A DNA stretch of 63,930 nucleotides, filler included, from an uncultured bacterium (GTDB taxonomy: Bacteria; DAOPZR01), in assembly GCA_964637655.1 (NCBI GenBank). It is 9 parts of 9 records of this genome, joined end to end, with 100 filler letters (N's around TTAATTAATTAA, not from the genome) between each part and the next. Parts side by side here need not be neighbours in the genome. Positions count along the whole stretch, not along the records: positions 57,320 to 63,930 come from CAZWUZ010000212.1; 8 more parts are not named here. One strand, written 5' to 3'. Positions 10,171 to 63,930 of the stretch are shown here, one piece after another. The translations under genes were made by a program, and so were the position numbers. A model generated the notes under the pieces. That model worked only from the letters and a program-made list of their open reading frames with translations. It was not told where the DNA came from and ran no database searches. The number at the start of each line of letters is the position of its first letter. Within the stretch, counting starts at the first letter, position 1.

Positions 10171-11073
10171 TCAGAAGCGGTCGCGGATCTCGACGTAGTT
10201 GTTCTCGCGCAGCTGGCGCTGCCAGTTGTCGATCTGCCCGTAGAGTTTGAGCATGCGCAGGTGGTCCATCAGCTGGCGCAGTTCCGCAGCGGGCATTTCA
10301 CTCTCCTCGAGCTTGCGCTTGCCCACCAGTTCGATGATGCTGTAGCCGCCGCGGTGGGCGATAATCCCGCTGCGCTCCCCCTCCTTGAGGGTGACCAGCA
10401 CGGCGTCGAGTTCGTCAGGGAGCGTACCGAGGCGGATGTAGCCCCAGTCGCCGCCGCGCGCGGCATGCGGGTCGGAGGATTCATAGGTGGCGACCACGGC
10501 GAAATCGACCCCCTTCTCAAGGTTGCTCTGCGCCACCCGCGCGTCCTCTTCGGCCGCGCAGAGGATGTGGCGGATATGGTACTCCTGCCGCACGTCGTCG
10601 GGAGTGACGTTGATCTCCGGGCCGAGTTCACTGCGATACAGGGTGGAGAGAATCAGGTCCTGCTTGGCCTGCTCGCGGTAATGCTCGCGCAGACCGTCAA
10701 CGGTCAGGCCGTTGCTGCGCAGCGCCTCGGCGAACTCGGACGCATCGAGGAAGTTGCTGCGCACTTCCATCACCAGCTTGTCCACCCGGGCGGAGACCTC
10801 GGCCTCTTCGACGACGATCCCGCGCCGCGCCGCTTCCTGCAGCACGAGGCGCGTGCGGATCAGCTCGTCGAGCGCCTGCTTCTTGACCTCGGGCGTGACC
10901 GTGCGCCGCTCGTTGAGCAGGCGCATGATGATCGGGTTGAGCTTCTGTTCGAGCTCGCTGTAGGTGATGATCTCGTCATTGATGATGGCGATGATCTTGT
11001 CGACAATGCGCGCCTCGGCCGCCGCCGGGTTCAGGCAGCAGGCAATGATGAGGATGGTCAGCAGGTAACGCAT
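10171..11073 (-). CDS. surA: SurA-like chaperone / parvulin PPIase
   Basis: Signal peptide, VDKIIAIINDEIIT, HIRHIL, GGDWGY. Confidence 0.85.
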   Translation of the reverse strand: MRYLLTILIIACCLNPAAAEARIVDKIIAIINDEIITYSELEQKLNPIIMRLLNERRTVTPEVKKQALDELIRTRLVLQEAARRGIVVEEAEVSARVDKLVMEVRSNFLDASEFAEALRSNGLTVDGLREHYREQAKQDLILSTLYRSELGPEINVTPDDVRQEYHIRHILCAAEEDARVAQSNLEKGVDFAVVATYESSDPHAARGGDWGYIRLGTLPDELDAVLVTLKEGERSGIIAHRGGYSIIELVGKRKLEESEMPAAELRQLMDHLRMLKLYGQIDNWQRQLRENNYVEIRDRF

Positions 11074-11164
11074 GGGACTCGCTCCTTGGTGGTCATGCCA
11101 CGAAGTCAGTATAGCAGATGGGACAGGCGCCGGCAACGGCCGGTTGCAGCGCGCGGTGACGCGG

Positions 11165-12580: not shown

Positions 12581-12628
12581 GAGGATTCACCTTTCGCGCC
12601 ACGGTATAGCACACGGGCGTCCGCAGCG

Positions 12629-14519
12629 TCAATACCCGGCGTCGTCAGCCAGCAGCGGCGGGAAGATGCCGCCACTCACCTGCCCGACGAGAACGGCATT
12701 GCGCACGGCCGGCGAGTGCGGGGCGAGGCGTAAGGCGTCAGCCCAGTCGCGGCCGGCGGCAGCGAAATTCTCGAACCCGTGCCGCGCCCAGCCGCGCGCG
12801 AGCAGCAGGGCAGGCGACGCGGGGGCGAGACGGGCGGGAATCACCTGCGCCGCGCGCCGGTACTCCCCCTGCTGATAGAGGCATTCGGACTGCAGGGCGA
12901 GCACGGCGGCAACGTCGGTATCCGCGGCACAGGACGCCAGCATGCGCCGGGCGACGTCGGGCAGGTGCGCATCGAGTGCGGCGTGTACCAGCGTGAGCCG
13001 CGCCGCGCGGGGCAGGGCGGGTGACCAGCGCGCGTAGAGCGCGGTGGCGTCCGCGCGCTCACGCTGCACGGCAGCGAGGTTGTCGGCGGCGTAGGTGAAG
13101 CCGGGCAGCTGGACAAGCGCGGCGCGGAACTGCGCTTCCGCTTCGGCGCGCCGCCCGAGACGACGCAGCACGGCCCCGAGTTCGTTGTGCAGTTCCGGGT
13201 CGCCGGGGCGGTGGTCGAGCGCGGTCTGATAGCAGCGCAGCGCCTCCGCCGGCCGGCCGCTGCGCACGGCGATATCGCCGCGCTGGCGCCAGGCGACGCT
13301 GTAATCGATGCGGTCAAGGCCGGCGAAGTCGGTGTTGAGCACGACGACGAGCAGCAGGGCGGCAGCGGGGAGCAGCAGCGAGCGGCGGCGCAGCGCGTCA
13401 TACACGGCAGTGACGCCGACCATGGCGGCCGGCAGCAGGAAGGGGAGCAGCGGGGCGCGGTAGCGGCTGACGACGAAAAAGGCGACGACAGAAAGGGTGT
13501 AGAGCCCGAGCAGCCAGAGGTACGGGGCGAGGCGCCGCCACTGCGGGCGGAGCACGGCGAGCCCGAGCAGGGCGCAGGGGATGATGAGCCCGGTGGGGAA
13601 GGAGAGGCCGGCGCGGCGCCAGAGCAGCAGGCGCAGCACGGGCACCTGCTGCGCGACGAAGTAGGGATCGACATTGCGCATCAGCTCATAGCCGTGCAGG
13701 AAGCGATGCACCTTGACGACCTGCAACTGCAGGAAAGCGAGCGGGTCGCTGAGTGCCCAGCGCTCGACTTCCGCGACGTAGTAATTCTGCCGTGTGAGGG
13801 TGTTGAGCGGGCGCACACCGGCCTGTTGCGGCAGCAGGCAGAACTGTTCCCAGCCGAACCCGGGGCGCAGCGCGAGCAGCGCGTCCATGCGCGGGTGATT
13901 GCCGAGGTAGAGGTTGATGCCCCAGCTCGAGGCGAGAAAGACGGGTGTATCGTCGTTGAGCTTGTTGCGCAGCGCGATGGGGGCAAGCACCAGCGCAGTG
14001 CCGAGCAGCAGCCAGACGAGGCCCGCGGCCCAGCGGTCAGGTCGGCGCACCAGCCAGTAGCCGGCAATGACCGGCAGGAGAACGAGCATGCTGCCGCGCG
14101 TGGCGGCAGCCAGGCCGCAGAGCAGGCCGAGGGCGAGCCCGAGCGGGCGCGCGGGCGCATCCCGCTGCGCGAAGAAGAGGGTGAAGCCGCCGAGCAGGAG
14201 CAGGGTGGCAAGCGGCTCGCGCAGCAGCTGCCCCTCGAAGAAGAGGAGCGGGCCGCAGAGCGCGGCGGCGAGCCCGGCGGCGAAGGCGAGGTGCCGGCGC
14301 GGCGGGAACAGCACGCGGGTCAGGGCGAAGGTAAGCGCGGCAGTGCCGCCGCCGCAGAGAAAATTCAGCACGTAGGCGGGAGTGAGCCCGTAGCCGCAGA
14401 GGCGGAAGGTGACCGCGAGGAGGTAGAGGTAGAGCGGCTCGTGGTAGTAGGAGCCGCGCTCACCCCACCAGGAGACGAAGGCGATGGCCTGCGCCTTGCG
14501 CTGGAAGGTGTGCGCATCG
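12629..14519 (-). CDS. ArnT/PMT-family (GT-C) glycosyltransferase with C-terminal TPRs (5'-truncated)
   Basis: EPLYLYLL, GINLYLGN, FFVVSRYRAP, TPR motifs (HNELGAVL..LG...EA..QFRAAL). Confidence 0.8.
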
Positions 14520-50220: not shown

Positions 50221-50547
50221 NNNNNNNNNNNNNNNNNNNNNNNNNNNNNNNNNNNNNNNNNNNNTTAATTAATTAANNNNNNNNNNNNNNNNNNNNNNNN
50301 NNNNNNNNNNNNNNNNNNNNAAAACCACCAGGTCAACGAGCACAGTGCTCTGACCCACCGGTGGCAGAGCCATGGTCAGTGCCGCAAGCTCTGCAGCACC
50401 CTGAGTCCCGCAGGCGATACCCTATGCCCCGTCGTCAGAAACTCGTCCAAATATCGCCCCTTACCTGTGACGTGGACTGATTCTATCACCACCGCCGGCA
50501 AGCGTCAACAGACCGATGGTCCGGCACACACTATCTGGCACGAGGTG

Positions 50548-50576
50548 TTGACGCGACGGGCAGCTCAGGCTATAGT
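50548..50576 (+). promoter_or_regulatory. sigma-70 promoter
   Basis: TTGACG-17nt-TATAGT. Confidence 0.6.
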
Positions 50577-50664
50577 CTTGCCACCGCCGGCGCACAGTCG
50601 GCACTTGGGCAGGGACGCGAACGCAGCATTCCCCCTCTGCACCAACAACGTGGCGGAGCGTGCG

Positions 50665-51699
50665 GTGGGTCTCTTCCCTTTCCTCTTTGCCAGCGGATTG
50701 ACGGCATTACGGGCGCAATGGTGCCCTGCGTTCCGCCGGCCGCTTGGGGTCTACATCATCCTGACCAACCGCTGTGACAGCAACTGCCGCTACTGCACGT
50801 ATCCTCCCCCGCAACCGCAAACCCTCGATGCGGAATTCGTCTGCGATTGTATCGATCAATTCGCCGCGCTGGGCACACGCAAGCTGAATCTTTCCGGGGG
50901 AGAACCGCTGCTGGTCGACGGACTCGACCGCATGATCCACCGGGCCAAACAGCGCGGCATGTTCGTCGCACTGACAACCAACGGACAGCAGCTGCCGGAG
51001 CGGCTGGAGGCGGTCCGGAAGGCCGACCTGCTCATGGTCAGTCTTGACGGCGATCCGGCAATCCATGACCGCAACCGGGGGGCAGGAAGCCATGCCCGGG
51101 TGCTGGCCGCGTTCGACGGTCTGGCGCGAGCACGCATTCCCTTCTGGATCAATACCGTGCTGCACCGCGACAACCTGCATGCGTTCGCCTACCTCTTTGC
51201 CGTCGCCCGACACTACCGTACAATCGTCAATATCACTCTGATCCAGCATCAGTCAGTCCCCGCCCCGCTGGGCAATGTGCCCGTCACCACCCGGGTCGAC
51301 ACCCTGCTGCCGGACGCGGCAGAAATGCGCGGCGCGATCCGGGAACTGCTCGCTGCCAGACAGCGGGGGGAACCGCTCGGCACCAGCGTCGCCTATCTCG
51401 AACACCTACTGTCGTGGGCCGATCCCGCGCAGCTGACGTCGCCGTTCCCTGCAACCGTGCCGTGCCTGGCGGGCCGCCTCTACTGCCACCTGCTTTTCGA
51501 CCGCCGCCTCTACGCCTGCGGCATCAATGTGAATCCGGCATTCGGGCAGCCCCTGCAGGACGGTGTGGCCGCGGCGTTTGCCCGGCTGCGCCCGCACCCG
51601 AACTGCCGTTCCTGTCGTGTCGCCTGCGAAGTCGAGAACAGCCTGATTTACAGCCTGCATCCCGGCACGATCGTCAGCTGGCTGCGACGACTTCCCTGA
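50665..51699 (+). CDS. Radical SAM protein with C-terminal Cys-rich (twitch/SPASM-like) region
   Basis: CDSNCRYC, SGGEPLL, TTNG, SLDG, CLAG...CRSC..AC; start inferred from GGAG + GTG. Confidence 0.88.
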   Translation: MGLFPFLFASGLTALRAQWCPAFRRPLGVYIILTNRCDSNCRYCTYPPPQPQTLDAEFVCDCIDQFAALGTRKLNLSGGEPLLVDGLDRMIHRAKQRGMFVALTTNGQQLPERLEAVRKADLLMVSLDGDPAIHDRNRGAGSHARVLAAFDGLARARIPFWINTVLHRDNLHAFAYLFAVARHYRTIVNITLIQHQSVPAPLGNVPVTTRVDTLLPDAAEMRGAIRELLAARQRGEPLGTSVAYLEHLLSWADPAQLTSPFPATVPCLAGRLYCHLLFDRRLYACGINVNPAFGQPLQDGVAAAFARLRPHPNCRSCRVACEVENSLIYSLHPGTIVSWLRRLP

Positions 51700-52493
51700 C
51701 CTGTTTCTGCAGTTCGATAGTGAGATACATCCCGAGCAGACAGTTGCAAGGTGCCAGCAGCCGTTCGCACCACTCAATCCACCCATACGCAGAGAGCGGG
51801 ACCAGCGGTTTCAGCACCGTTCCGCCGCTGACAAGAAACTTGAGGGGCGTATGCGGCTGTACGCGCACAATTCTGAGCAACGGATACCGCTGTTCGAACA
51901 GTCGCCGGTCCCGAACAAAGATGATCCAGGGGATGGCGGCGTTGGCAGAAAGCAGCGGACTGCTGCCATCCGTATCCCACCCCGCCGTCCGGTCATAGTT
52001 CTCATAATGGATAAACCGCCAGATAAAACGTGCCCACAGCGTGCTGGCCGGTTCGAGCAAGACCACTCTGCCGCCCGGTTTGAGCGCACGCGACAATTCA
52101 GCAAAAAGTTGTCTCGTTGCCGGCATGTGATGCAGCGCGTTGAGCATGAATACGGCGTCGAGCGATTCCGTGCGGAACGGCAGGCTCTCCGCCGCCATGC
52201 GCACATCGATACGCGGTACCTGCATAACGTTCGGTGGTGATAACCTGCGGAAGTACGTCCCGGATGCCCCCTCCCCCCGAGCCGAGTTCGACCATGATTT
52301 GGCTACCACCAGTGACCGGCATCGCCTGCTGGAACACTGCATAGAAATCGGCGTACGCGCGCCGCAAGAACGGTTTAGCGGCGATAACCTGCGCCTGCGC
52401 CAGACAGCGGTCAAGGTCGTCGGCGCCCCAATCCGCGCCCGGTTCCGCGACTCCCAAAAGATGCGCCAGGCGTACAAACCACGTTTTACTCAT
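51674..52493 (-). pseudogene. Class I SAM methyltransferase with a single-base frameshift near 52230
   Basis: VELGSGGG in one frame, LPF..ESLD....NALHH in another; deleting one A (GAAC>GAC) restores VITTDVMQVP. Confidence 0.8.
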
Positions 52494-53617
52494 CGCGCCC
52501 CCTGACTGCTGTGCCCGTTTCTTGACGCCGTTGGCCGGAACCGGTTACGCAGCGTCTCCCACACCGTCTCGCCGATCACCCGCCAGTCCCAGTTGATCAT
52601 CGCCGATGTGTTCATCAGCGGCAAGATGTAGCAGGTATCGCACTGCTTCGTCGCCAGATGGGTGAACGCCGAATCGAACCCGTCCCGTTCCCAGTTTTTC
52701 GCCGCAAAGACTCCCTGCATGCCCTGGCAGGGATAGAGCGCCCCATCCTCATCAATCACCAGCTCGTACTGCCCATACTGGCAGTGAATCGGGCGAAAGC
52801 CGGGGAGTGCCGCGGCTTCCGCAGCGGAAAGAAACACGCGGTCATACGGAACTGGCCAGGCAGCGGCATAGCGCAGCACGCGCGAAGTGGTGAAGATCGG
52901 ATACCCGCGCTTTTTGTAGGCGAGCAACTCAGCCAGGTAGGCGCGAATCTCCTCCGTGCTCATGCCCAACGGTTCCCCTTCCTGCTCCTCATTGCCGCGA
53001 AACAGGAAACTGCAGCCCCATTCGAGACGCTGGTCGCGCACCAGTCGTGCCATCTCATGCACATCACCGGCCACATGCCGGTGCACCGTGGAGTTGATGC
53101 GCACCGGCACACCGTAGCGACGGCGTACCTCTCCGATCGAACGCAACACCCGCGCGAACGTTCCCGTCCCGCGCACCCGGTCGTTGCCCTCCGCCATGCC
53201 GTCGAGGGAAAAACAGAGATTGTCCATCAGGTCGAGTTCGGGGATTTCGCCGATGCGCTCCGGTAGCTGGCCATTGCTGGCTAGCGCGGTGACGATGCGC
53301 CGGCCGGCCAGATGGCCGAGCATCCGGCCGAGATCGGGATGCAGCAGCGGCTCCCCTCCCTGGATAAGCACGTAGCGCGTTCCCCGCGCCGCAAGGAGCT
53401 CTGCCAGCGCAAGGAATTTCTCGTAGGGCAGGTCGGGACGCTGGCGCTCGGCATAGCGACCGAAACAATACGCGCAGCGATTGGTGCAGCGGCTGTTGAT
53501 GACCAGGTTGACGTAGAACGGATAGCGGGGCCGGCGGAACGCGCGGATGGCGAGCATGGCCGCGAGGATGCGCCCGCGATCCCACAGGCGTGCCGTTTCC
53601 CTCCGCTGCCCGTTCAT
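52490..53617 (-). CDS. Radical SAM protein
   Basis: CTNRCAYC, GGEPLL, SLDG, CQYG...YPC...CDTC; ATGA overlaps at both ends. Confidence 0.9.
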   Translation of the reverse strand: MNGQRRETARLWDRGRILAAMLAIRAFRRPRYPFYVNLVINSRCTNRCAYCFGRYAERQRPDLPYEKFLALAELLAARGTRYVLIQGGEPLLHPDLGRMLGHLAGRRIVTALASNGQLPERIGEIPELDLMDNLCFSLDGMAEGNDRVRGTGTFARVLRSIGEVRRRYGVPVRINSTVHRHVAGDVHEMARLVRDQRLEWGCSFLFRGNEEQEGEPLGMSTEEIRAYLAELLAYKKRGYPIFTTSRVLRYAAAWPVPYDRVFLSAAEAAALPGFRPIHCQYGQYELVIDEDGALYPCQGMQGVFAAKNWERDGFDSAFTHLATKQCDTCYILPLMNTSAMINWDWRVIGETVWETLRNRFRPTASRNGHSSQGAR

Positions 53618-54681
53618 CGCAGGAGGGAATCGAGTTCCCGGTTCACCGTAAGGTAACAGCCACGGCAGCGGCGGCAGGCACGACGGCGCGCGTCCCACGC
53701 CGGCGAGAACCAGAGATCGCGTACGCTCCCGCCTCCGCTCCGCACATCGTGCCCGTTCCGTTCCGCCAGCATGTCTGCCTTGCACGCGAATGCGCGCAAC
53801 TGCGGGTCAATGAACAGGGTCAGGTACGCGGCCGTGCACCCGTCGGGGGGGGCTCCCCCGGCAAGGCAGGCATCGAGGGCGGCAAGGTAACTGTCGGAAT
53901 TATCGACCAGCCGGCGGCGCGGATGCCGGGCGAGCAGAGCGCCGGGGCGGCACCCATCGGGCCAGCAGCTTATGTGGCAGTTGCCCGGCGCATACTCATG
54001 CTGCGGGCAAAAGATCACCCGTGCCACCCGCAGCCTATGGGCGAGATCAAGCAGCCCGCCAAGCTGCGCGGCGTTCTCGCGGCAGATGACCGCGGAGAGT
54101 GCCAGCTCGGTGGGCGTGTCCGTGCGGTCAAGTCCGGCCTGCAGCTGCTGCAGGTTGGCGAGCGTGGCCGCGAAAGCGCCGGGACAGCCGCGAGAAGCAT
54201 CGTGTACCGGCGCTTCCGCCCCGTCGAGCGATACCATCACTGTCGCCGGCGCCGCCGTGAACAGCTGCTCCAGCTGTTCGCCGAGCAACAACCCGTTGGT
54301 CACCACCATCGTTTCCAGGCCGCAGCGCTTCGCCTCACTGACCAGCGTCCACAGATCGCGCCGCAGCAGCGGTTCGCCACCGGTGAATGCAACCGCTGCG
54401 ACGTTCATTGCCGCCAGTTCGTGCAGCAGCCCGATCGCCTCGGCGGTAGTCATCTCCGGATCCTGCCGGCGCTCCGGCAGCCGGCAGCGCGGACAGTGCT
54501 GGTTGCAGTTCGCCGTGACAAACAGGTGCGCGATCAGCGGCCCGCTCGAAATGCTGCCGTCGTCCCGTCGCCAGTCTCGCCGCAACCGGGCAAGGGAGAC
54601 GAACCGCCGCCAGCACCAGCCGAGATTGCCGGCGCGCAGGCGCCGCCGCGCCGCTGTCAGCAGGCCGCGTCTGAACCTCAT
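53614..54681 (-). CDS. Radical SAM protein
   Basis: CNQHCPRC, TGGEPLLR, TNG, SLDG, CTAA...AC...CRRCRGC. Confidence 0.9.
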   Translation of the reverse strand: MRFRRGLLTAARRRLRAGNLGWCWRRFVSLARLRRDWRRDDGSISSGPLIAHLFVTANCNQHCPRCRLPERRQDPEMTTAEAIGLLHELAAMNVAAVAFTGGEPLLRRDLWTLVSEAKRCGLETMVVTNGLLLGEQLEQLFTAAPATVMVSLDGAEAPVHDASRGCPGAFAATLANLQQLQAGLDRTDTPTELALSAVICRENAAQLGGLLDLAHRLRVARVIFCPQHEYAPGNCHISCWPDGCRPGALLARHPRRRLVDNSDSYLAALDACLAGGAPPDGCTAAYLTLFIDPQLRAFACKADMLAERNGHDVRSGGGSVRDLWFSPAWDARRRACRRCRGCYLTVNRELDSLLR

Positions 54682-55868
54682 CGACCGGGAACCCCGCGCT
54701 CCCGGGCGCATGCGGCCAGCAGCGTTTCCTGTTCGTCGAAGCGGGCCAACACTTCTGCGGGGGAAATCCCGTTCATGCAGGCAGTGCCCTGACGGCAACG
54801 TCCGCGCTTGGCGTTGAACACATCGAGGCACGGGCTGCACGGCAGCCTCCGGCAGAATACGGCATGCCCGGGGCCACTATGCCCGTACAGTTCGGGGGAT
54901 TCCGTGCCGAAAAACGAAAAGGTCGGCACGCCCAGTGAGGCCGCAAAATGCAGCGGCCCGGAGTCGGTGGTGATCACCAGCAGCGCCCGTTCCAGCAGCG
55001 CGAGCAGCGTGGCGAAATCAAGCTTGCCGGCAAGTGCCAGCGTCGTTGCGCCGACGCGAGCTGCCAGCCGGTCGCTCTCCTCCTGCTGGGCGGCCGTGCC
55101 GATCACCGCCAGGCGATACCCGCGTCCTGCAAGGTTGCGGCCAACAGCGGCAAAGTGATCTTCCGGCCAGCGTCGTTCGATCCATGGCGATGTGTCGCTG
55201 ACATTGGGATTGAGCACAATCAGCGGCTGCGCGGCGGCTCCGGCCGCAGCCAGCAGTTCCCGGCACCGCTGCCGGGCGGAATCCGCAACCGCAGGAGCGA
55301 CCAGCACCCGCGACACCGCGTCACCCGTCAGCGGTTGCACGAGATCGAGAAAGATATCGACGATGTGCCGGCCGCGATCAAAACAGCACGGGATATCGGG
55401 AGGCGTGCCGCGATATACCCGGCCGGTATGAAACCCGATGCGGCAGCGGGCACCGGAAAAGCGGCTGACCAGCGCTGTATAGCGTGCGAAGAACTCCGCG
55501 TCAATCACCACGTCGGGCCGACGGGCGTGCGTCCCGGCAATGATCCGTCTGGTATCCGCCGCGAACGCTGCCAAGCTGGTGCGACGAACCGCATGGAGTA
55601 TCACTTCGCCGCAATAGCTGCGGACAATTTCCTCGTTACCGGCAAAAGTCATGAACGACATCCGCGCCTGCGGACAGCAGCGCCGCAGTTCGCGGACGGC
55701 CGGCGCCAGCAGAGAGATGCTTCCCATCCCCATCATCTTGATGAGCAGAATCTCGCGCACCGTCTCCGGCGGGGGCAGGGGCCGGCGCGGGCGCGGCAGC
55801 GCGGCGGCTAATGCGCACAGGGGGGCACCACCATAATTGTCGAGCAGTTGCATGGCCCCGGTGCGCAT
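54678..55868 (-). CDS. GT9 (heptosyltransferase-like) glycosyltransferase
   Basis: IKMMGMG, RRWP..HF, TTDSGPLHFA, CSPC. Confidence 0.88.
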   Translation of the reverse strand: MRTGAMQLLDNYGGAPLCALAAALPRPRRPLPPPETVREILLIKMMGMGSISLLAPAVRELRRCCPQARMSFMTFAGNEEIVRSYCGEVILHAVRRTSLAAFAADTRRIIAGTHARRPDVVIDAEFFARYTALVSRFSGARCRIGFHTGRVYRGTPPDIPCCFDRGRHIVDIFLDLVQPLTGDAVSRVLVAPAVADSARQRCRELLAAAGAAAQPLIVLNPNVSDTSPWIERRWPEDHFAAVGRNLAGRGYRLAVIGTAAQQEESDRLAARVGATTLALAGKLDFATLLALLERALLVITTDSGPLHFAASLGVPTFSFFGTESPELYGHSGPGHAVFCRRLPCSPCLDVFNAKRGRCRQGTACMNGISPAEVLARFDEQETLLAACARERGVPGR

Positions 55869-55949
55869 CCGGCGTTTCTCCTGTCGTTCAGTTTCTCACA
55901 GCGGCATCATAATACATCCGGGGGTGACTGACAAGGAACGCGGGACGCG

Positions 55950-57219
55950 CTATCCAGAAATGGTTCGCTGCCAGCGAAGCCGCAGCAGCAGGAACAACAG
56001 CACCAGCGTCGCCACGCCCGACAGCACCAGGCCCGGCGCCAGCCCCGGCTGCCGGAAGCGGAAAACAACGTTCGCGTGCCCCACCGGCACGGCCACCGCG
56101 CGGAACGCATAATTCGCCCGCAGCAGCGCCGCCGGCTGGTCGTTGACGCGGACTTCCCAGCCGTCTGCCAGCAGGTCAGCCAGCAACAACAGGCCGGGAG
56201 CGTCCGTCACGGTCGCGATGCTCACGCGATCAGGTTCATCCGCGATGATTCGCGCTGTTCCTGTCATCCCCGACGCCGGGGGCAGGGGCGGCGTTTCCGT
56301 CAGCAGGAGCGTGCGCGCCGGATCGAAATCCGGGGCAAGCAACAAAGGCAGCTGCGCCTGCGGTTCCGGCACGACACGGTATTCGGCGAACAGGGAAGCA
56401 CGGGCCAGCGGGGCAGCAACGACAACCACTGTGTCGGGATAGACAATCCAGCGGGTGGCGGTAAGCCGGCAGAATTGCGGCAGCCGTTCTTCCGTCGGTT
56501 CTTCCGGCCCGTTTTCAAGACGGTACGGTGAAGCGGGATAGAACATCAGTGCCGCCATCCCTTCCGGGACGCGATTATCATACCCGGTGCTGGCATACAT
56601 GCCGGTAAGCAAGCCCGTCGCGTTCTGCGTCGCCCGGCTGCGCCCGTAGATGCGGTGCCTGCCGCCTTCCTCACGGTACGTCTCCAGCGCCATCCAGTCT
56701 CCCGCGCCAAGGGAAACAACAGGGGGCGGGGAGAAAAACGGCAGCAGCGCATTGGCATGGATCCGCACGCTGCAGGAGAGGTCGGCGATGACCAGCAGCC
56801 CGATGGCGCCACGCAACCAGGTTCGGCGTGAAGCCGGTTGTCGGGACCAGCGCAGCAGCAGCAGCGAGCTCAGGACAGCGACCGTGCCGCCGATCGCCAG
56901 CGCGTCTCCCGGCAGCGGGATGCCGTTCCGCTGTCGCACCAGGAGCAGGAGCAGCGTCGCCGGCAACAGCAGCAGCAGCGCACCGCCCGCCATGCCGGCT
57001 CCGGCGGCCGGCCGACGCTCCAGTCGGCTGCCGGCACAGGCGCAGAGTGCCGCCCAACACACAGGCATGAACCAGGTGATTCGAGTGAACATCAACGACG
57101 AGCGGTTTCCCAACAGATGCAACAAGCCGGTGACCGGCGTACCGTATGCCGCCAGCAGGATACCCACCAGTGCTCCCGACCAGAACCAGGTTTTCTTCCC
57201 GGGCCCGGGAAGAAAACCT
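55950..57219 (-). CDS. YfhO-family membrane protein (5'-truncated)
   Basis: GLLLLAD...GW...VN......RANYAFRAVAVP.G..V.F.F followed by a terminal TM. Confidence 0.85.
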
Positions 57220-57319
57220 NNNNNNNNNNNNNNNNNNNNNNNNNNNNNNNNNNNNNNNNNNNNTTAATTAATTAANNNNNNNNNNNNNNNNNNNNNNNNN
57301 NNNNNNNNNNNNNNNNNNN

Positions 57320-57832
57320 CCGGATATGATAGCGCGACAGTTCCTTGGCCAGGCTCGTGGTAAATCCGCTCACCGCCGCCTTCGCCGCCGCGTAATGCAC
57401 CGGCACCTCGAGAAGACGATGACCCGCCAGCGAACCGATATTGACGATCGTCCCCTGCTGGCGGTGGATCATCCCGCGCACCGCCGCGCGCGTGGTGAGG
57501 AACATGGTCTTGAGGTTTGCCGCCATCATCAGGTCCCAGTCCGCCTCTTCGATCAGCGCGAACGGCATAACCTGCGTGCGCCCGGCATTGTTCACCAGCG
57601 CCGCCAGCGGCCCGCACTGTTCCTCCGCGGCGGCGACCAGTTGCGCGGCCTGCGTCGCGTCGGTCAGATCGGCCGCCAGCGCCCGCGCGCCTGTTTCCGC
57701 AGCCAGCGCCTCCGCCTTGTCCCGGTTGCGGTGGTAGGAGAATACCACCGTCCATCCGTCCCGCACCAGGCAGCGGACGATCGCGCTCCCGAGCGCGCCG
57801 CTCCCTCCCGTTACCAGCGCTGCCTTACTCAT
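57320..57832 (-). CDS. FabG-like ketoreductase 2 (3'-truncated)
   Basis: TGGSGALG, NNAG, HYAAAK. Confidence 0.88.
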
Positions 57833-58233
57833 GCTGCGCCTCCCTCCGCCTGTATCGTCTTCACCAGGTTGACGAACGTCTCCACCCGGAAGCGGCGCGG
57901 CAGTTCGGCGGTGCCCATGCCGGGCCTGAACTCCTCTGCCGGCACCTCCGGCATCGCCCGCTGCAGTTCCGCCAGCGCCTCCGGCGTGTAGATGCCGCCG
58001 ACCTCGAGCGGCACGGTGCCCAGCGCCGCGCGCGCCTTGCGCTCGATGTTACCCGGCACGATCCGGATCGAGAACCGCCGTTCCAGCTGGAACAGCAGGT
58101 CGAGCAGGTCGAGCGAATCCGCGCCAAGATCGTCGAGGATCCGGTCGCTCAGCTTGATTGTTGACGGCTCCGTGTTGAGCACCCGGCCCACGCATTCACA
58201 GACACCGGCAACGGTCTCTTCATGGCTCAGCAT
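57829..58233 (-). CDS. Acyl carrier protein with large internal insertion (134 aa)
   Basis: DDLGADSLDLLDL.FQLE..F.I.I, then ~50 extra aa before FRVETFVNLV. Confidence 0.85.
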   Translation of the reverse strand: MLSHEETVAGVCECVGRVLNTEPSTIKLSDRILDDLGADSLDLLDLLFQLERRFSIRIVPGNIERKARAALGTVPLEVGGIYTPEALAELQRAMPEVPAEEFRPGMGTAELPRRFRVETFVNLVKTIQAEGGAA

Positions 58234-58844
58234 AGGTATCTCCGGTATGACGCCGGCGCCTTGCGCGCGGGCGGCGTCAGTTCTTCCGCCGGATAGCCGA
58301 CGGTGATCAGGCAAACCAGTTCCTGCCGTTCGTGCAGCCCGAGCAGCGGGCGCAACGCTGCTGCCGCCGCCAGCGGGCCGGTCAGGCAGCAGCTCCCGAG
58401 CCCCGCCGCCGTCGCCGCCAGCATGAGATTCTGCGCCGCCATGGCGGCAGCGGTGCGCTGGCCGGCGACCGCGACGGCATCCTCGCCCAGCAGTTCCTGC
58501 AGGAACAGTTCCGGGCGGCGGCAGGCGACCGCAATAACCGCCGGTGCCGCTGCGAACCAGGCGAAATGTTCCGCGTAGCGCCGCAGTTCCGCCAGGGCGC
58601 CGTCCGCTGCCGCATCCGCCGTCAGTTCCTGCCAGCGCGTGCGCACCGCTTCCGCCATCAGCTGCTTTGTTGCCGCGGCGGTGACGACGACAAATTCCCA
58701 GTTCTGGCGGTTGCTCGCGCTTGGCGCCCAGACCGCGGCCGCCAGCAGTTCGTCGAGCAGCGCCGCCGGCACCGGGTCGGACCGGTAGCGGCGTACCGAG
58801 CGCCGGGCGCGCAGCAGGGCCAGCGCCGCGTCGAGGCCGCTCAC
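58227..58844 (-). CDS. Nitroreductase-family flavoprotein
   Basis: RRSVRRY, APSASNRQNW, AQNLMLAA...GLGSC, VGYP. Confidence 0.92.
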   Translation of the reverse strand: MSGLDAALALLRARRSVRRYRSDPVPAALLDELLAAAVWAPSASNRQNWEFVVVTAAATKQLMAEAVRTRWQELTADAAADGALAELRRYAEHFAWFAAAPAVIAVACRRPELFLQELLGEDAVAVAGQRTAAAMAAQNLMLAATAAGLGSCCLTGPLAAAAALRPLLGLHERQELVCLITVGYPAEELTPPARKAPASYRRYLC

Positions 58845-59587
58845 AGGCCGAGCCCGCCGTCGACGGCAATGACCTGCCCGGTGAGATACGCGGCCTGCTC
58901 GCCGGCGAGAAACACGACCACCGCGGCAACATCATCGGGTGTGCCGAAGCGCTGCACGGCGATCTCCTCGCGCAGCCGCGCGCCGTAATCGGCGCGGATG
59001 CGCGCCGACATCTCCGTCTCGATGATACCCGGCGCCACGCAGTTGACCAGCACCCCCTTGCGGCCGACTTCCTTCGCCAGCACCCGGGTCAGCGCTTCGA
59101 CCCCGGCCTTGCTGGCGGCATAATTGATCTGTCCGCGCCCGCCGTAGCGGGCGGCAATTGACGACAGGTTGATGATCCGTCCCCAGCGGTTGAGCAGCAT
59201 GAATTTCGCCGCCGCCCGGCAGAGCGCGAAAGCGCCGGTCAGGTTGGCGTCGAGCACCGCCGCCCAGTCGTCGTCGGACATGCCCAGCGCCGGCGCCTCG
59301 CAGTTGCGCGCCGCGCAATTGACGAGGATATCGAGCCGTCCGTGCGTGTTGTACAACTGTTCGCATACTGCCGCGCACTGCTGCGGGACAGCGACATCCA
59401 GTGCGACCGCTTCCGCCGCGTTGCCGGCCGCATGCAGTTCGGCAACCAGCGCTTCTGCCCGGTCGCGATGCTGACAGTAGCCGACCGCCACCCGCACGCC
59501 GGCCTGCGCCAGCTGCCGGCATACCGCGCTGCCGATTCCACCGCTGCCGCCGGCGACCAGCGCCACCCGCTGTGTTCCGCTCATCAC
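58841..59587 (-). CDS. fabG: 3-oxoacyl-ACP reductase
   Basis: GGSGGIG, GQINYAASKAG, VAPG.IET.M. Confidence 0.9.
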   Translation of the reverse strand: MMSGTQRVALVAGGSGGIGSAVCRQLAQAGVRVAVGYCQHRDRAEALVAELHAAGNAAEAVALDVAVPQQCAAVCEQLYNTHGRLDILVNCAARNCEAPALGMSDDDWAAVLDANLTGAFALCRAAAKFMLLNRWGRIINLSSIAARYGGRGQINYAASKAGVEALTRVLAKEVGRKGVLVNCVAPGIIETEMSARIRADYGARLREEIAVQRFGTPDDVAAVVVFLAGEQAAYLTGQVIAVDGGLGL

Positions 59588-60825
59588 TGCACCTCACGCC
59601 GCAGCACCAGGGCCGCGTTCTGGCCGCCGAACCCGAACGAATTGCTCAGTGCGTATTCCCCGGGGCAACGGGTGCCGGGTGCCGTCACATGGCAGAGTTC
59701 GCAGCCTGCTCCGACCTGCTGCAGCGACAGGTTGGGGGGCACGATCCCCGTCTGCAGCGTCAAGACAGTCGCTGCCGCTTCGATGGCGCCCGCCGCGCCG
59801 ATCAGATGTCCGGTCATCGCCTTGATCGCGCTGACCGGCACCTGCTGCCAGGTGTCGGCGAACACCGTGCGTATCGCCTGCGCCTCGTTCCGGTCGTTCA
59901 GCGGTGTGCCGGTCCCGTGCGTATTGATATGTCCGACATCCGCCGGCGCGATCCCCGCATCGGTCAGCGCGTTGCGCATGGCGCGCATCGCGCCGTCACC
60001 GGTCGGGTCGGGTGCGCTCAAACTGTGCGCGTCGAGCGATGTTGCGTAGCCGCAGATCTCGGCCAGCACCGTTTTGCCCGCCGCGCGGGCCGCCGCCAGC
60101 GGTTCGAGCACCAGCACAGCCGCGCCTTCACCGAGCACCGTGCCGACCCGCGCCGCGTCAAACGGCCGGCAGGCGCGGGCGCCGTCCTCGTTGCGTGTCG
60201 TCAGCGCTCCCAGCAGCTGGAAGCCGCCCATCCGGAGCGGGTTGAGCATTGAATCGAAGCCGCCGCATACCGCAACCTGCCACTCGCCGCTGCGGATCGC
60301 GCGGAACCCGTGGCCGATCGCCTGGGTTCCGGCCGCGCAGGCCGCGCAGTTGACCAGCGTGCGCCCCGGCCGGCCGTATGCGTCACCCAGCAGACGCACG
60401 GCACTGTCGAGCGGTATCTGCAGCGGCGATCCGTCGCCGTTCAGGCTGCGGCGCGCCACGGCGGCAAAATCCGGCTTGCCGCCGGCAATGATCTTTCCCA
60501 GGTCGAAGATTTCCAGACCGGTGCCGAGATGCAGCAGTGTTTCCGCGGTGAAGCGCTCCTGCCCGGCCTGGACCAGCGCTTCGCCGGCCGCGGCAAAGGC
60601 AAAGCCGATCTTCGGATCGAGCGCCGCCAGCGGCCGCACTGCTTCCGGCAGTTCCGGCAGCTGTTTCACTTCTCCGGCCAGGCGCGCGGCAAAAGTCGAG
60701 GCGTCAAACCGCGTGAGCGGCGCGATGCCGCTTCTTCCGTCGGCGAGCGCCGCCCGGAACGCCGGACCGCCGTTGCCGACGGGCGAGATCACGCCGAGCC
60801 CGGTCACCGCCACGCGCCGGTTCAC
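59584..60825 (-). CDS. fabF: Beta-ketoacyl-ACP synthase (active KS, FabF-like)
   Basis: AACAAG, RPFD, GEGA, HGTGT, K.MTGH, NSFGFGGQN. Confidence 0.9.
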   Translation of the reverse strand: MNRRVAVTGLGVISPVGNGGPAFRAALADGRSGIAPLTRFDASTFAARLAGEVKQLPELPEAVRPLAALDPKIGFAFAAAGEALVQAGQERFTAETLLHLGTGLEIFDLGKIIAGGKPDFAAVARRSLNGDGSPLQIPLDSAVRLLGDAYGRPGRTLVNCAACAAGTQAIGHGFRAIRSGEWQVAVCGGFDSMLNPLRMGGFQLLGALTTRNEDGARACRPFDAARVGTVLGEGAAVLVLEPLAAARAAGKTVLAEICGYATSLDAHSLSAPDPTGDGAMRAMRNALTDAGIAPADVGHINTHGTGTPLNDRNEAQAIRTVFADTWQQVPVSAIKAMTGHLIGAAGAIEAAATVLTLQTGIVPPNLSLQQVGAGCELCHVTAPGTRCPGEYALSNSFGFGGQNAALVLRREVQ

Positions 60826-61766
60826 GGCCGCCCCAGTTTCGCGCTGAAGGTCTGCCCGTCGCCGCAAGCCATGGTCATGCCCGGCTCGCCGGCAAGGGCG
60901 GTCAGCGCCAGCATCACCGCCGGCGCCGCGGCAAAACTCTGTCCGCAGCGCATGGCGAGCGGATCGGCAGCCGGTTCAGACGACTGCGCCAGTTTCAGGT
61001 TGCGCACCAGCGCGTACGGTTGCCGTCCCGCGGCCTGCGCCGCTGCCGCGCGCTCGATGATGAGGTAGGCGGCGGCTGAGGCGGGCACTTCGCCGTCATG
61101 CAGCAGGCCCGCCTGGCGCAGGTAGACAAACGTGGCGGGCTGGGCCGGAGTGTCGGCCGCGCCGGCTACCGCACAATCGACTTCACCGTCTGTCACCGCA
61201 CGCCACGCTTCGTACAACGCTGCCGCCGTCTGTGCCGCCCACGGCGTGAGGATAAGGTTGGGGCCCTTGATCCCCTCGATGATCGAGATCAGGCAGGGGG
61301 GCATGTTGGGCAGGATGCGGAACGACAGCAGCGGGTTGGTCGCCGCCAGGCCATCACGCCCGAGACATACCGTCGAGAAGATTCCGTGTTCGTCCACGGA
61401 ATGCTCAACCGTCGTTGCCACTTCCGACAGATTGGCCGCTGCCAGGCCGCTGCCGGCATAGAGACCTATCCGCTCCGCCGCGTAACGGCCGATAATGCCG
61501 GCATCGGCTATCGCCGCGTGCGCGGCGGCGCAGCCGAGCACCGCGGCCGGAGACATGTATTTGAGCATGCGCCGGTTGCCGGTCATGGTGCCGGCATCGA
61601 AGGCCGGCGGTTGCGCGACCGGCGCCGCCGCCAGCGGGGTTTCCGCCAGTTCCGGCAGCGGCGCGCGCGGCGCAACCGTGCCGGCCCGCCAGGCCGCGAG
61701 ATTGTCCGCGGCCGTCACTCCCAGCGGCGTCAGCAGGCCGATGCCGGTGATGGCGATCTCAGTCAC
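60822..61766 (-). CDS. Truncated non-catalytic ketosynthase (chain-length-factor-like)
   Basis: ITGIGLLTPLG, LPNMP, IKGPN; catalytic Cys position is in WAAQ; C-terminal His motifs absent. Confidence 0.8.
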   Translation of the reverse strand: MTEIAITGIGLLTPLGVTAADNLAAWRAGTVAPRAPLPELAETPLAAAPVAQPPAFDAGTMTGNRRMLKYMSPAAVLGCAAAHAAIADAGIIGRYAAERIGLYAGSGLAAANLSEVATTVEHSVDEHGIFSTVCLGRDGLAATNPLLSFRILPNMPPCLISIIEGIKGPNLILTPWAAQTAAALYEAWRAVTDGEVDCAVAGAADTPAQPATFVYLRQAGLLHDGEVPASAAAYLIIERAAAAQAAGRQPYALVRNLKLAQSSEPAADPLAMRCGQSFAAAPAVMLALTALAGEPGMTMACGDGQTFSAKLGRP

Positions 61767-62226
61767 GCGCCGACGGCTCCCGCAGCCAGAGTGCCAGCAG
61801 TTCCGCCCGCCGCTCATCAAGCAGCGGCTGGTCGATCTGGTGGAAGGAAAAGAGCAGGCGGCATTCCGCTACCGTTTTGCCGTCGCGCTGCGCCTGCACT
61901 ACGGCCGTGGCCCCGGCGTCGTTGGCCGATTCCACCGCTGCCCGGTAGGTGAGCGTGTCGCCGGGATAGACCGGGAGGCGGAACTTGGCGCGGTCGACCA
62001 GCGACAGCAGCGCCTTGCGGTTGCGCCCGGTGCGCTGCCGCTCCCCTTCCTCGATCAGCAGTCCCGACAACTGCGCCATCCCCTCGAGCAGCAGCACGCC
62101 GGGCATGATCGGCTTGAGCGGAAAATGATCGTCAAAGTAATCTTCAGACAGGGCAACGTTCTTCACCGCCGTCGCCTGCCGTCCCGGCTCCCACTGCGTT
62201 ATCCTGTCGATCAGGAAGAAGCGCAT
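61759..62226 (-). CDS. fabZ: 3-hydroxyacyl-ACP dehydratase
   Basis: FFLIDRI, KNV, DHFP..PIMPGVLLLEGMAQ, F..PV.PGD. Confidence 0.9.
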   Translation of the reverse strand: MRFFLIDRITQWEPGRQATAVKNVALSEDYFDDHFPLKPIMPGVLLLEGMAQLSGLLIEEGERQRTGRNRKALLSLVDRAKFRLPVYPGDTLTYRAAVESANDAGATAVVQAQRDGKTVAECRLLFSFHQIDQPLLDERRAELLALWLREPSARD

Positions 62227-62239
62227 GCTGGTCTTCGCC

Positions 62240-62692
62240 TCACGTGCCGGCCGGAACGTTCCGGTCGAGGTATTTGATCCCGATGGCGGCGACGAACATA
62301 CCGATCATCGCGCCGTTGGCCATCGTCGCCAGGTAGACGATAACGATGCCGGCCAGCGCCGCCGACAGGTGGTTGGAGGCGATCAGCAGCGTCAGGGGAG
62401 GGACCAGCGCCACCGCGATGCCGACCGCCGCGCCGATCAGCGCCCCGTCGAGCCGGGTGGCCGGCCCCGCGGCGGAACGGTGCTTGATCAGCCAGAGCCG
62501 TATGCCGTAGTCGTTGGCAAACGCGCCCAGCGCGCCGCCGCCGATGACCGACAGCAGCAGACGCAGCAGGTACACCTCGCGGAACGGGATGGTCAGGCCC
62601 AGCACGATGAAGAAGGCCAGCGTCGGCACGATGCAGAACAGGGCGCCGATCAGTTTCGCCCGCCGGATGTAAAAATCACAGAGTGCTTTCAC
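62240..62692 (-). CDS. Hypothetical 4-TM membrane protein
   Basis: Four hydrophobic Gly-rich segments; GGGAGG RBS; overlaps the regulator stop. Confidence 0.75.
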   Translation of the reverse strand: MKALCDFYIRRAKLIGALFCIVPTLAFFIVLGLTIPFREVYLLRLLLSVIGGGALGAFANDYGIRLWLIKHRSAAGPATRLDGALIGAAVGIAVALVPPLTLLIASNHLSAALAGIVIVYLATMANGAMIGMFVAAIGIKYLDRNVPAGT

Positions 62693-63348
62693 TATACCCC
62701 TCCCTTGCGGTCAACAACGTGTTGTGATGCCTCGCGATGATGCAGTATCAGTTCCTCCACCATCTGCGGGTCCGTGGTCGCCACGAAACCCGGCGCCCAC
62801 ATGTTCTTGCCGTGGAAATGGAGCGGATGACAGACCCCCAGCGCCAGCGTCGCGTTTTTCAGGTTGCGCACGATGCGTTCCGGCGAATGGTCGGGTGACG
62901 CGAGCAGGCTGATGATGAAGCCGTCGGCACTGATCTCCAGTTTGCGGATTTCCCAGTCATGCTCACGGCAGACCCGGCGCAGCTGCTTATCCAGTTCGTC
63001 AGCGATCTTCTCCTGGAAAAACGGGTACCCCTTGCGCGTGCGACAGGCAATAATGATCGGCAGGTAGGCAAAGTAGTGCTGGCTGGCCCAGATCTTCTTC
63101 TTCAGTGCGGTAATTATGGTGGTGCGCTGCCCCGGCGCGTGCAGCAGGCGGATCGAGCGGGCCCGGTCGGGCGTACGCTGGATATACCCCTTCTTTTCCA
63201 GCGCCAGCAGGTGGGAACGTATGCCGTTCGGGTTGGGAATGCTGAAGCGCTCCCCGATCTCCATCAGCGTGGGCGCCACCGCCCGTTCCGCGATCCGGCT
63301 CTGGATGAAGGTCAGGATTTCCTGCTGCCGGGCCGTCAGCGCTTCCAT
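62692..63348 (-). CDS. LexA-type winged-HTH fused to a degenerate IS200/IS605 Y1 transposase domain
   Basis: LTARQQEIL.FI...PT..EI...F....NG...HL.ALEKKGYI.R....RSI; then CREHDWEI..LEI..D, SP..SP..IV..LK, W.PGF..TT. Confidence 0.8.
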   Translation of the reverse strand: MEALTARQQEILTFIQSRIAERAVAPTLMEIGERFSIPNPNGIRSHLLALEKKGYIQRTPDRARSIRLLHAPGQRTTIITALKKKIWASQHYFAYLPIIIACRTRKGYPFFQEKIADELDKQLRRVCREHDWEIRKLEISADGFIISLLASPDHSPERIVRNLKNATLALGVCHPLHFHGKNMWAPGFVATTDPQMVEELILHHREASQHVVDRKGGV

Positions 63349-63365
63349 ACCGCCCTTTCAACTAC

Positions 63366-63413
63366 TGTCATTATTTACACCCTTATTATACTGTAATTTC
63401 GTACACCTGTCAA
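63366..63413 (-). promoter_or_regulatory. Consensus sigma-70 promoter with two TGT-N8-ACA operator boxes
   Basis: TTGACA (63408-63413)-17nt-TATAAT (63385-63390); boxes at 63366-63379 and 63392-63405. Confidence 0.8.
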
Positions 63414-63695
63414 GGGCGCGCCGCTGGCATTTTGCTAACTTCCTGCCGCTCCGGATAATGTATGCGAGGGATTGGCGGCGGTTGACAGGGCCTTGTCGCC
63501 GCGCCGGTATGGCCTTCCCGAAAACCGGTCCGGATGCATCCGGGGGAATCAGGTCAGGTCACTTCAATAAAAGGCCGCTTCCTCATACGAGAAAACGGCA
63601 GTTCTGATCCATATTGGCTCCCCGGACCTCACCATAGACAGAACCTTCAGCATAATTCTTGCGGTCGATTTTGCCGGTCGGGGTACTGACTGATA

Positions 63696-63930
63696 TCAGG
63701 GAAGCAGGAACTCGTCGACAAAATCGCGCGGCGACATAATCCGCACATACGGCAATCCGTGCCGGCGCAATTGCTGAGCGGTGAGGTCAAGAAGGTGCCG
63801 GTCACCGCTCACGATAATCCTGGCCCTGGCGGCAGAGGCGACAGCAAGACAGGCAGTATCGGCAGCATGCGTACTGACCGTAACAGTTCGCGTTGCCCGC
63901 ACCGTGGTCGCCTGATGGATGATCGTCCTG
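63696..63930 (-). CDS. PIN-family putative toxin, C-terminal part (cut by window end)
   Basis: D..CL.VA....A.IIVSGDRHLLDL...IMSPRDF. Confidence 0.8.
   Translation of the reverse strand, partial: RTIIHQATTVRATRTVTVSTHAADTACLAVASAARARIIVSGDRHLLDLTAQQLRRHGLPYVRIMSPRDFVDEFLLP

Follow-up and report, generated by a model that had tools for sequence, protein, structure and literature searches.

A LexA-type DNA-binding domain joined to a catalytically dead Y1 transposase fold in a probable repressor heading a fatty acid/polyketide synthase-type operon

What could a protein be doing at the head of a biosynthetic operon when one half of it resembles the repressor LexA and the other half a transposase of the IS200/IS605 family? 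The question is raised by a 218-residue gene, called the regulator here, in a stretch of 63,930 nucleotides from an uncultured bacterium (assembly GCA_964637655.1; the whole joined stretch is the window). The first-pass annotation proposed that the Y1 fold of a TnpA transposase had been co-opted in a repressor that heads an operon of the fatty acid synthase/polyketide synthase (FAS/PKS) type. This overall interpretation was supported by our analysis, and every part of it that could be checked held. The regulator is probably a pathway-specific, autoregulated and dimeric repressor of transcription.

The open reading frame (ORF) was intact at exactly 62692-63348 on the minus strand and overlapped the next gene as described, with one base common to its stop codon and the GTG start of the following ORF (TAGTG, 62694-62690). 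Residues 1-64 matched the Pfam family LexA_DNA_bind (PF01726) with an E-value of 9e-21 and 73.9 bits (cut-off 23.7), and the N-terminal part matched the solved LexA domain 1lea with an E-value of 1.6e-11. The NCBIfam lexA equivalog (TIGR00498) covered residues 1-75 only, at 71.1 bits, below its cut-off of 110.95. Pfam gave no match to Peptidase_S24 (PF00717) in the 218-residue protein. The translation held no Ala-Gly dipeptide, the linker site of LexA self-cleavage, in all 218 residues. Pfam, NCBIfam and the translation thus agreed with the earlier description of a LexA winged helix-turn-helix (HTH) lacking both the S24 domain and the Ala-Gly site. The recognition-helix region reads PNPNGIRSHLLALEKKGY, and its Arg44 and His46 were each kept in 44 of 45 family members.

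The Y1 pattern noticed in the C-terminal half was recovered by profile and by fold. Pfam Y1_Tnp (PF01797) aligned to residues 96-192 on profile positions 7-105 of 121 (E 8.5e-7, 29.6 bits, cut-off 23), and the NCBIfam IS200 transposase model (NF033573) to residues 98-201 with 38.9 bits, which falls short of the equivalog cut-off of 55. Built from the C-terminal domain alone, a small profile matched the solved TnpAs 2fyx (E 9e-8) and 2f4f (E 4e-7), and all 30 of 30 ESM Atlas feature matches for residues 88-218 were Y1_Tnp clusters. An AlphaFold2 model built on nine family members had a mean predicted local distance difference test (pLDDT) of 76.4. By Foldseek its C-terminal half resembled ISDra2 TnpA (2xm3, 2fyx) with E-values of about 1e-6 and template-modelling (TM) scores to the target of 0.65-0.77, with the IS608, IS200 and Sulfolobus TnpAs as lower matches. 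The N-terminal part was superposed on the LexA DNA-binding domain (3jso, 1lea) at 42% identity and a root-mean-square deviation of 1.1-3.3 Å over about 70 residues. The regulator is a LexA DNA-binding domain and a dead IS200-type Y1 domain in one protein.

The columns of the HUH motif and of the catalytic tyrosine were placed by HMMER profile alignment to solved TnpAs (ISDra2, IS200) and by a MAFFT alignment with ten ordinary Y1 proteins. In the regulator the HUH triplet falls on Gly143-Phe144-Ile145 ('ADGFII') and the tyrosine on His204 by HMMER or His203 by MAFFT, within 'LILHH'. Both alignments therefore gave the readings DGFI for the HUH motif and LILHH for the YxxxQ helix that had been reported earlier. 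The control set came from genomes G001-G004, all of which carry the fusion, and comprised four IS200-type and six RAYT-like proteins; HxH and Tyr were present in 10/10 of them in the same joint alignment columns. In the 45 fusion proteins the second HUH histidine was found in none (0/45), and column 204 held Leu in 31, Phe in 6, His in 5, Tyr in 2 and Trp in 1. At column 203 tyrosine occurred in 1 of 46 rows, a count that still included locus L005, an ordinary LexA. The loss of HUH and Tyr that had been anticipated among homologues was therefore seen, and because the second histidine is absent and tyrosine rare across the fusion proteins, catalytic loss is a property of the family and not recent decay in one genome. 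The clade of the window is the furthest degraded, with DGF where most relatives read DH(V/I). Trp132, His154, Ser155 and Trp184 were family-specific and invariant or nearly so, His154 and Ser155 each being present in 44/45.

At least 45 proteins make up the fusion family, which is spread over Planctomycetota, Desulfobacterota and metagenome contigs of no assigned taxon. Of 23 matches in a word-index search, 9 carried both Pfam domains. An exhaustive profile search returned 26 representatives at E <= 1e-30; at E <= 0.001 its 28,175 matches were mostly LexA DNA-binding domains. Separate hidden Markov models (HMMs) of the two halves were both found in 25 of the 171 proteins then collected. Genome and metagenome scans yielded 33 loci with apparently full-length matches, 32 after L005 was dropped. 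This Hydrogenedentota locus had at first been mistaken for a fusion as its tblastn match extended to residue 189; it is the ordinary LexA of its genome, without a Y1 domain, and was rejected and kept out of later counts, although it still stands in the 46-row alignment used for dimer prediction. Four loci with matches reaching residues 154-160 (L022, L036, L043, L110) were left out of the fusion count and are assumed to be LexA over-extensions of the same kind. P0066 (135 aa) and P0074 (114 aa) carry the C-terminal domain only; both seem to be truncated gene calls, and neither entered the counts as a free-standing form of the domain. The alignment used for the counts (A4) holds 19 database proteins and 26 locus proteins after removal of L005, with the distinct locus proteins L078 and L081 outside it.

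Named hosts were Planctomycetota (L001, L002) and Desulfobacterota (L003, L004), the other loci being unassigned metagenome contigs. The nearest relatives of the regulator were P0002 (88% identity) and P0003 (78%). In a maximum-likelihood tree of the C-terminal domains and the ten controls, the 45 fusion domains formed one group (support 100/98) on the IS200-type side, and a 100/100 branch separated the RAYT-like proteins. The tree has 55 sequences, a small outgroup and some long branches, and good support for descent of the dead domain from one IS200-type TnpA is confined to that sample. The fusion is not a one-off; the earlier emphasis on one genome is corrected to a family of at least 45 members.

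The gene neighbourhood is also a family character. In 18 of the 32 fusion loci, as in the window, the regulator is followed by (sometimes) a membrane protein, a FabZ-like dehydratase, a truncated ketosynthase (KS), a full KS and further genes. A second order, in 11 of the 32, runs from the regulator through a radical S-adenosylmethionine (SAM) enzyme, a short-chain dehydrogenase/reductase (SDR), a class-III aminotransferase, a ketoreductase (KR), a second radical SAM enzyme, the FabZ-like protein, the truncated KS, the KS and a KR to a nitroreductase; short contigs show only its beginning. Locus L087 has only 92 bases downstream and is uninformative, which leaves 31 informative loci. The expected linkage to genes for KS and acyl carrier protein (ACP) was found, with the FAS-like cluster (KS/FabZ/ACP genes) in 29 of these 31 and lipid genes in 30. 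At L001 (Planctomycetota, 10783-13610) there is no FAS-like cluster; the regulator heads genes for a phosphatidylserine decarboxylase, a CDP-alcohol phosphatidyltransferase, a patatin-like lipase and an AMP-binding enzyme, and its promoter has the same two-box layout as the window.

That layout lies directly before the regulator gene. The upstream gene is closed by a terminator-like hairpin, and therefore the regulator has its own promoter. The consensus promoter reported there was confirmed (12/12 matches to TTGACA-17-TATAAT), and four promoter-like sites were found in the region where shuffles gave 0.5. Two operator-like boxes of 16 bp and the form GTGT-N8-ACAG lie 26 bp apart. No other site in the 63.9-kb window comes within one mismatch of GTGTA-N6-TACAS, and the regulator gene has no other repeats beside it. 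The segment 63360-63415, which had been suggested for an electrophoretic mobility shift assay, contains both boxes.

Among the relatives, a promoter with at least 10/12 matches stood 59-68 nt before the start codon in 22 of 28 distinct upstream regions. The boxes keep a fixed position in it, inside the -35/-10 span in 17/28 and at or after the -10 hexamer in 12/28. The 28 regions held 32 boxes within one mismatch; when the same regions were shuffled with dinucleotides preserved, the number was 1.89 +/- 1.35, and none of 1000 shuffles reached 32. Exact boxes numbered 13, compared with 0.09 expected, and a box was present in 15 of 17 sequence-distinct groups of upstream regions. Clades without the box carried related palindromes (GTATAC..., TTATACTATA...TATAGTATAA). 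The third base of the half-site varied with residue 41 in the recognition helix: half-sites of proteins with Asn showed G in 26 cases and A in 10, and those of proteins with Ser G in 12 and A in 36, in counts that ignore shared ancestry. These patterns suggest that the regulator binds the GTGT-N8-ACAG boxes. Five loci of the second order (L004, L074, L080, L082, L084) also have a GC-rich inverted repeat (AACCGC.GGGCAGC...CC.GCGGTT) about 150-190 nt upstream of the regulator start, before the promoter. Rfam gave no family match in the window, L001, L004 or L066.

The same boxes bear on the direction of control. With the looser pattern STRT-N8-AYAS the boxes often fell into arrays at a 15-nt period, and in some relatives two- or three-box arrays of this period extend downstream, as might be expected of an activator or a dual regulator of the operon. 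We regard such a role as unlikely, since a perfect consensus promoter needs no activator and the boxes stand within the promoter itself: of the 17 spacer bases all but one belong to box 1, the expected start lies under box 2, and 17 of 28 relatives likewise have a box within the -35/-10 span. Box positions in the spacer and over the start site are typical of repressors in bacterial promoters. Repression rather than activation is thus the direction to which the arrangement points.

Dimerisation was addressed by structure prediction with two copies of residues 78-218 and the 46-row alignment. The predicted homodimer had an ipSAE of 0.70 (0.69-0.71 in three runs) compared with 0.00 for the best of three controls, with a contact agreement between runs of at least 87% and a partner pLDDT of at least 79. 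In calibration the mark was reached by 20 of 30 true one-chain pairs and by 1 of 23 single chains. The confident interface comprised residues 88-98, 150, 152-158, 185-193 and 196-208, and it holds the best-conserved residues of the family: Pro152, His154, Ser155, Pro156, Gly187, Thr191 and Thr192. The sections of PMC3597680 that were available describe TnpA as a dimer whose active sites are shared between subunits. The prediction shows likeness, not binding. The proposal that the transposase fold serves as a dimerisation module therefore stood as a model-based result, and the regulator may well dimerise through its dead domain.

Conservation of this kind could also be expected of a protein that is still a DNA-processing enzyme or belongs to a mobile element, working through other residues (His154-Ser155 with Asp142) or doing no more than bind hairpin DNA at the ends of an element by which the cluster is moved. 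The protein retains the Y1 fold, His154 and Ser155 are nearly invariant, Asp142 is present in 38/45, and P0003 is publicly named a RayT transposase. We nevertheless hold this to be very unlikely. None of the fusion proteins has the second HUH histidine and at most 2/45 have the tyrosine, while all ten real Y1 proteins have both. There is one fusion locus per genome (4/4), and ordinary Y1 genes make up the rest of the 2-26 matches per genome. The same biosynthetic neighbours are fixed across phyla. The absence of tnpB noted at first sight was borne out, with no tnpB-type ORF beside the regulator gene within the window and the TnpB zinc-ribbon family (PF07282) in 0/4 of the relatives' genomes. 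His154 and Ser155 lie on the predicted two-fold dimer contact and correspond to the PxxS stretch of ordinary TnpAs, so a structural role suffices for them. The label on P0003, 'REP element-mobilizing transposase RayT', comes from one public source and is probably wrong, because the fusion proteins lack the second HUH histidine; automatic pipelines may file LexA-Y1 regulators as transposases.

A link to the DNA-damage response was considered as well, in which the boxes would be SOS boxes of the host LexA and the fusion, as a decoy or competitor, would couple the lipid operon to that response. GTGT-N8-ACAG is one base off the E. coli-type SOS box, CTGT-N8-ACAG, and over about 70 residues the DNA-binding domain is 42% identical to that of E. 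coli LexA. All five genomes searched, four of which also carry the fusion, encode a full-length LexA that passes the NCBIfam cut-off. In these four the box was absent from the 200 nt upstream of the canonical lexA gene (0/4), although lexA is usually self-regulated, and the canonical LexAs have different recognition-helix sequences. The box variant follows residue 41 of the fusion protein, and in the 9.9-Mb genome G004 the sole exact GTGTA-W6-TACAS site is the fusion promoter. In our judgement there is little to be said for the SOS link.

The other genomes gave a few further sites. Genome G001 has GTGTA-W6-TACAS at the fusion promoter and one identical 16-mer elsewhere: the second copy of GTGTAATTAAATACAC lies at L158 7120-7135 (G001:C133:65119-65134), between the promoter-like hexamers TGGACA-17-TAATAT and upstream of a 796-aa ORF without a Pfam match. 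It is possibly a second target of the G001 fusion regulator. In G003 the one exact site is inside a molybdopterin oxidoreductase/iron-sulfur (FeS)/NrfD operon, where it probably occurs by chance, and the fusion promoter has a one-mismatch variant. Upstream of the canonical lexA of G002 (L145) there is a different palindrome, TGTTCAATTGAACA, unlike the fusion boxes, which is a candidate SOS box of that organism.

Selection was estimated by pairwise Nei-Gojobori dN/dS on locus genes of 65-97% protein identity, in 51 pairs that are not independent. For the dead C-terminal domain dS was unsaturated in 44 pairs, and in these the median was 0.16 and the maximum 0.30; for the DNA-binding N-terminal domain the median was 0.12 in 40 pairs. 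Homologues under purifying selection, as foreseen for a true family, are therefore at hand in a family of 45 proteins, dN/dS being about 0.16 among the locus genes compared. A decaying remnant or an assembly chimera without function, which the degenerate catalytic motifs might suggest, is scarcely credible for a fusion with intact frames in 45 proteins on 32 separate contigs, a dN/dS of this size, and Trp132, His154, Ser155 and Trp184 preserved throughout or nearly so.

The probable repressor would then work as follows. The second HUH histidine, which binds metal, and the tyrosine nucleophile would have been lost before the fusion family radiated, leaving a LexA paralogue with an inactivated TnpA dimer in place of the self-cleaving dimerisation domain. 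The dead Y1 domain would cut no DNA and would supply dimerisation, as the S24 peptidase domain does in LexA. As a dimer, the LexA-type winged HTH would bind the 16-bp boxes GTGT-N8-ACA(G/C). Since one box fills the promoter spacer and the other covers the start site, RNA polymerase should be blocked by the bound protein. Repression would extend to the regulator gene and to the co-directional operon of membrane protein, FabZ-like dehydratase, KS and truncated KS, KR, nitroreductase, ACP, SDR and onwards. Derepression might come through a ligand for the dead domain, through a partner protein (for example the linked 150-aa membrane protein), or the circuit may be one of simple autoregulatory homeostasis.

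A more specific role of the dead domain, as a signal-receiving module, is a tentative suggestion that we think has the odds against it. The domain would act by a retained binding of single-stranded or hairpin nucleic acid, or with the former active-site cleft as a ligand pocket. The pocket could be formed by Asp142, the often-kept first histidine and the invariant His154-Ser155, and the ligand could be acyl-ACP or the product of the cluster. If this were true, the family would be the first of bacterial transcription factors with an effector domain derived from an HUH transposase, and a dedicated switch of a widespread FAS/PKS-like pathway in uncultured anaerobes, whose KS has more than 6,500 relatives at E <= 1e-60.

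Several observations weigh against the repressor with a dead dimerisation domain. The first HUH histidine is kept in 32/45 fusion proteins and the preceding aspartate is conserved as given above, so that a residual metal or ligand site is possible. The high dimer score may reflect solved TnpA dimers that the model remembers, TnpA being itself a known dimer, and the alignment supplied to it was our own. The box count over the whole window, three strand-matches where 1.4 are expected, was reached by 21 of 100 shuffles and is not significant alone. The box pattern was defined after the upstream regions had been viewed, which makes the enrichment test partly post hoc and its result somewhat inflated; the effect is large. 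Six of the 28 upstream regions have no box within one mismatch. Locus L002 has unrelated genes downstream and no lipid genes, and a contig end cuts its upstream side. The dN/dS pairs leave out the window's own clade (P0002, P0003). Among the sequencing runs listed, no RNA run contained this stretch, which speaks neither for nor against the reading.

The features of the locus are collected in Table 1; the window ends 582 bases upstream of the regulator gene, with the farther upstream side outside the view.

Table 1. Positions of the regulator, its domains, the control elements and the neighbouring genes in the window.
Feature	Coordinates	Strand	Basis and remarks
Regulator gene, 218 aa	62692..63348	(-)	ATG start; LexA-type winged HTH, linker helix and catalytically dead IS200-type Y1 domain; ORF, Pfam, NCBIfam, model, Foldseek
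LexA DNA-binding domain, residues 1-64	63157..63348	(-)	Pfam E 9e-21; 1lea/1jhf E ~1e-11
Y1 (HUH) transposase fold without catalytic residues, residues 88-215; predicted homodimer interface	62704..63087	(-)	Y1_Tnp, PDB profile, Foldseek, dimer score
Gly-Phe-Ile (residues 143-145) at the HUH place	62914..62922	(-)	Alignments
His-His (residues 203-204) at the catalytic Tyr place	62737..62742	(-)	Column 204 by HMMER, 203 by MAFFT
Sigma-70-type promoter TTGACA-17-TATAAT	63385..63413	(-)	12/12 matches
Operator-like box 1, GTGTACGAAATTACAG	63391..63406	(-)	Fills the -35/-10 spacer (16 of 17 bases)
Operator-like box 2, GTGTAAATAATGACAG	63365..63380	(-)	Starts 5 nt past the -10 hexamer; spans the expected transcription start
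Terminator-like hairpin closing the upstream gene	63574..63599	(-)	
ORF open at the window end, 77 aa seen, no Pfam match	63696-63929	(-)	Upstream of the regulator; terminator-like hairpin after the ORF
Hydrophobic (membrane-like) protein, 150 aa	62240..62692	(-)	Without Pfam or NCBIfam family; GTG start overlaps the regulator stop
FabZ/FabA-like dehydratase, truncated KS (N-terminal domain only), KS, FabG-like KR, nitroreductase, ACP, SDR	57272..62226	(-), co-directional	Pfam, NCBIfam
Further cluster genes: YfhO-like membrane protein, GT9 glycosyltransferase, two radical SAM enzymes, methyltransferase; third radical SAM enzyme	50467..57167	(-); third radical SAM enzyme (+)	

Within the cluster, the truncated KS has 332 residues and consists of the N-terminal domain only, and the full KS gave 363 bits to fabF, below the cut-off of 494. 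At 59584-61820 (minus strand), the pair of KS and truncated KS resembles the cispentacin enzyme AmcF in NCBIfam, and the FabZ-like dehydratase resembles AmcE, both below threshold. Relatives of the KS number more than 6,500 at the E-value given above; among the best 120 listed, which are about 60-68% identical, the names include Sumerlaeota, Deltaproteobacteria, Planctomycetota, Elusimicrobiota and Nitrospirae. Because of this number of relatives, the cluster type is far commoner than the regulator, and by its genes the cluster looks like a widespread, unnamed type II FAS/PKS-like pathway. A ladderane-like cluster was considered and kept as a lead only; the part of the paper that could be consulted (PMC2649909) mentions no regulator or transposase. 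The promoter with its two 16-bp boxes offers a handle for switching on this uncharacterised FabZ/KS/radical-SAM lipid-like cluster of several phyla.

The 150-aa membrane-like protein recurred in ten loci of the window-order type (L064-L066, L069, L072, L073, L075, L077, L085, L091). It was 46-54% identical across loci and stood always near the regulator or the cluster, on either strand; it could be a component of the pathway or a partner of the regulator. The profile search also brought up many high-scoring representatives with tandem LexA-type DNA-binding domains, two in one chain of 140-350 aa (P0031-P0034, P0038, P0043, P0045-P0049, P0052, P0054 and others). About 27 of P0024-P0070 have this form, and P0051 carries four such domains. 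The tandem proteins could be single-chain pseudo-dimers.

Compared with LexA (1JHF, 3JSO, 1LEA), the fusion has the same N-terminal winged HTH and boxes over its own promoter, and would likewise bind as a dimer to a 16-bp box with 4-bp half-sites 8 bp apart. Unlike LexA it has neither the S24 peptidase domain nor the Ala-Gly site, and therefore no RecA-stimulated self-cleavage. Its box starts with GTGT, not CTGT, it coexists with a true LexA in all four fusion genomes, and its predicted regulon is one biosynthetic operon. The LexA DNA-binding domain can thus apparently take a dimerisation partner other than the self-cleaving S24 domain, which speaks for the modularity of LexA.

With the IS200/IS605 TnpAs (ISDra2 2XM3/2FYX, IS608 2A6M, IS200 2F4F) the fusion has the fold, the motif order, the predicted homodimer and the tree position in common. 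It differs in the loss of the second HUH histidine and the catalytic tyrosine, in being joined to a domain that binds duplex DNA, and in being single-copy (4/4 genomes) with fixed synteny and no tnpB; IS-end hairpins were not searched for systematically. Among factors drawn from the same family, the TldR proteins are nuclease-dead repressors derived from TnpB and are, in the accessible text of PMC10705468, likewise IS200/IS605-family proteins turned bacterial transcription factors. TldRs are RNA-guided, whereas the fusion derives from TnpA and its DNA would be read by a fused protein domain. TnpA would thereby join the TnpB-derived regulators already described as a source of exaptation.

The RAYT/TnpA-REP and TIRYT proteins (4ER8; Quentin et al. 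2018, PMC6006769) are also single-copy Y1 proteins retained by the host, and as far as the available portion of that paper goes, TIRYT subclass 2.1 carries an HTH domain. They keep HuH and Tyr and are thought to process repetitive extragenic palindromes (REP) or single-stranded DNA, and their HTH is C-terminal, of the DnaA_C/HTH_23/28 type. In the fusion the motifs are lost, the tree split is 100/100 and 4er8 is a weaker Foldseek match (E 2e-3). The same portion describes a Y1 superfamily survey that was restricted to proteins with both motifs and left long 'fusion' proteins aside; the LexA-Y1 family would therefore have been missed by it. Likewise, the text at hand of a review of exapted mobile elements (PMC8987985) mentions neither LexA nor RAYT and, where it treats IS200, deals with the IscB and TnpB nucleases only. 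No description of a LexA-Y1 fusion was found in the literature covered, which excludes most subscription journals and supplementary files. The route appears unlike the domestication of RAYT and TIRYT, in that the HUH fold would be kept for architecture and joined to a LexA DNA-reading head.

Lrp/AsnC, FapR, FabR, DesT and FadR are functional analogues, in which a winged HTH is combined with a small alpha/beta oligomerisation or effector domain and lipid genes are controlled locally. They have no sequence relation to the fusion, and Lrp (2gqq) appeared only at Foldseek rank 50 with TM scores of 0.22-0.29. By its sequence the fusion falls outside LexA, the functional Y1 transposases and the RAYTs, with one domain in common with each, and as a sequence-level finding the LexA-Y1 family is solid.

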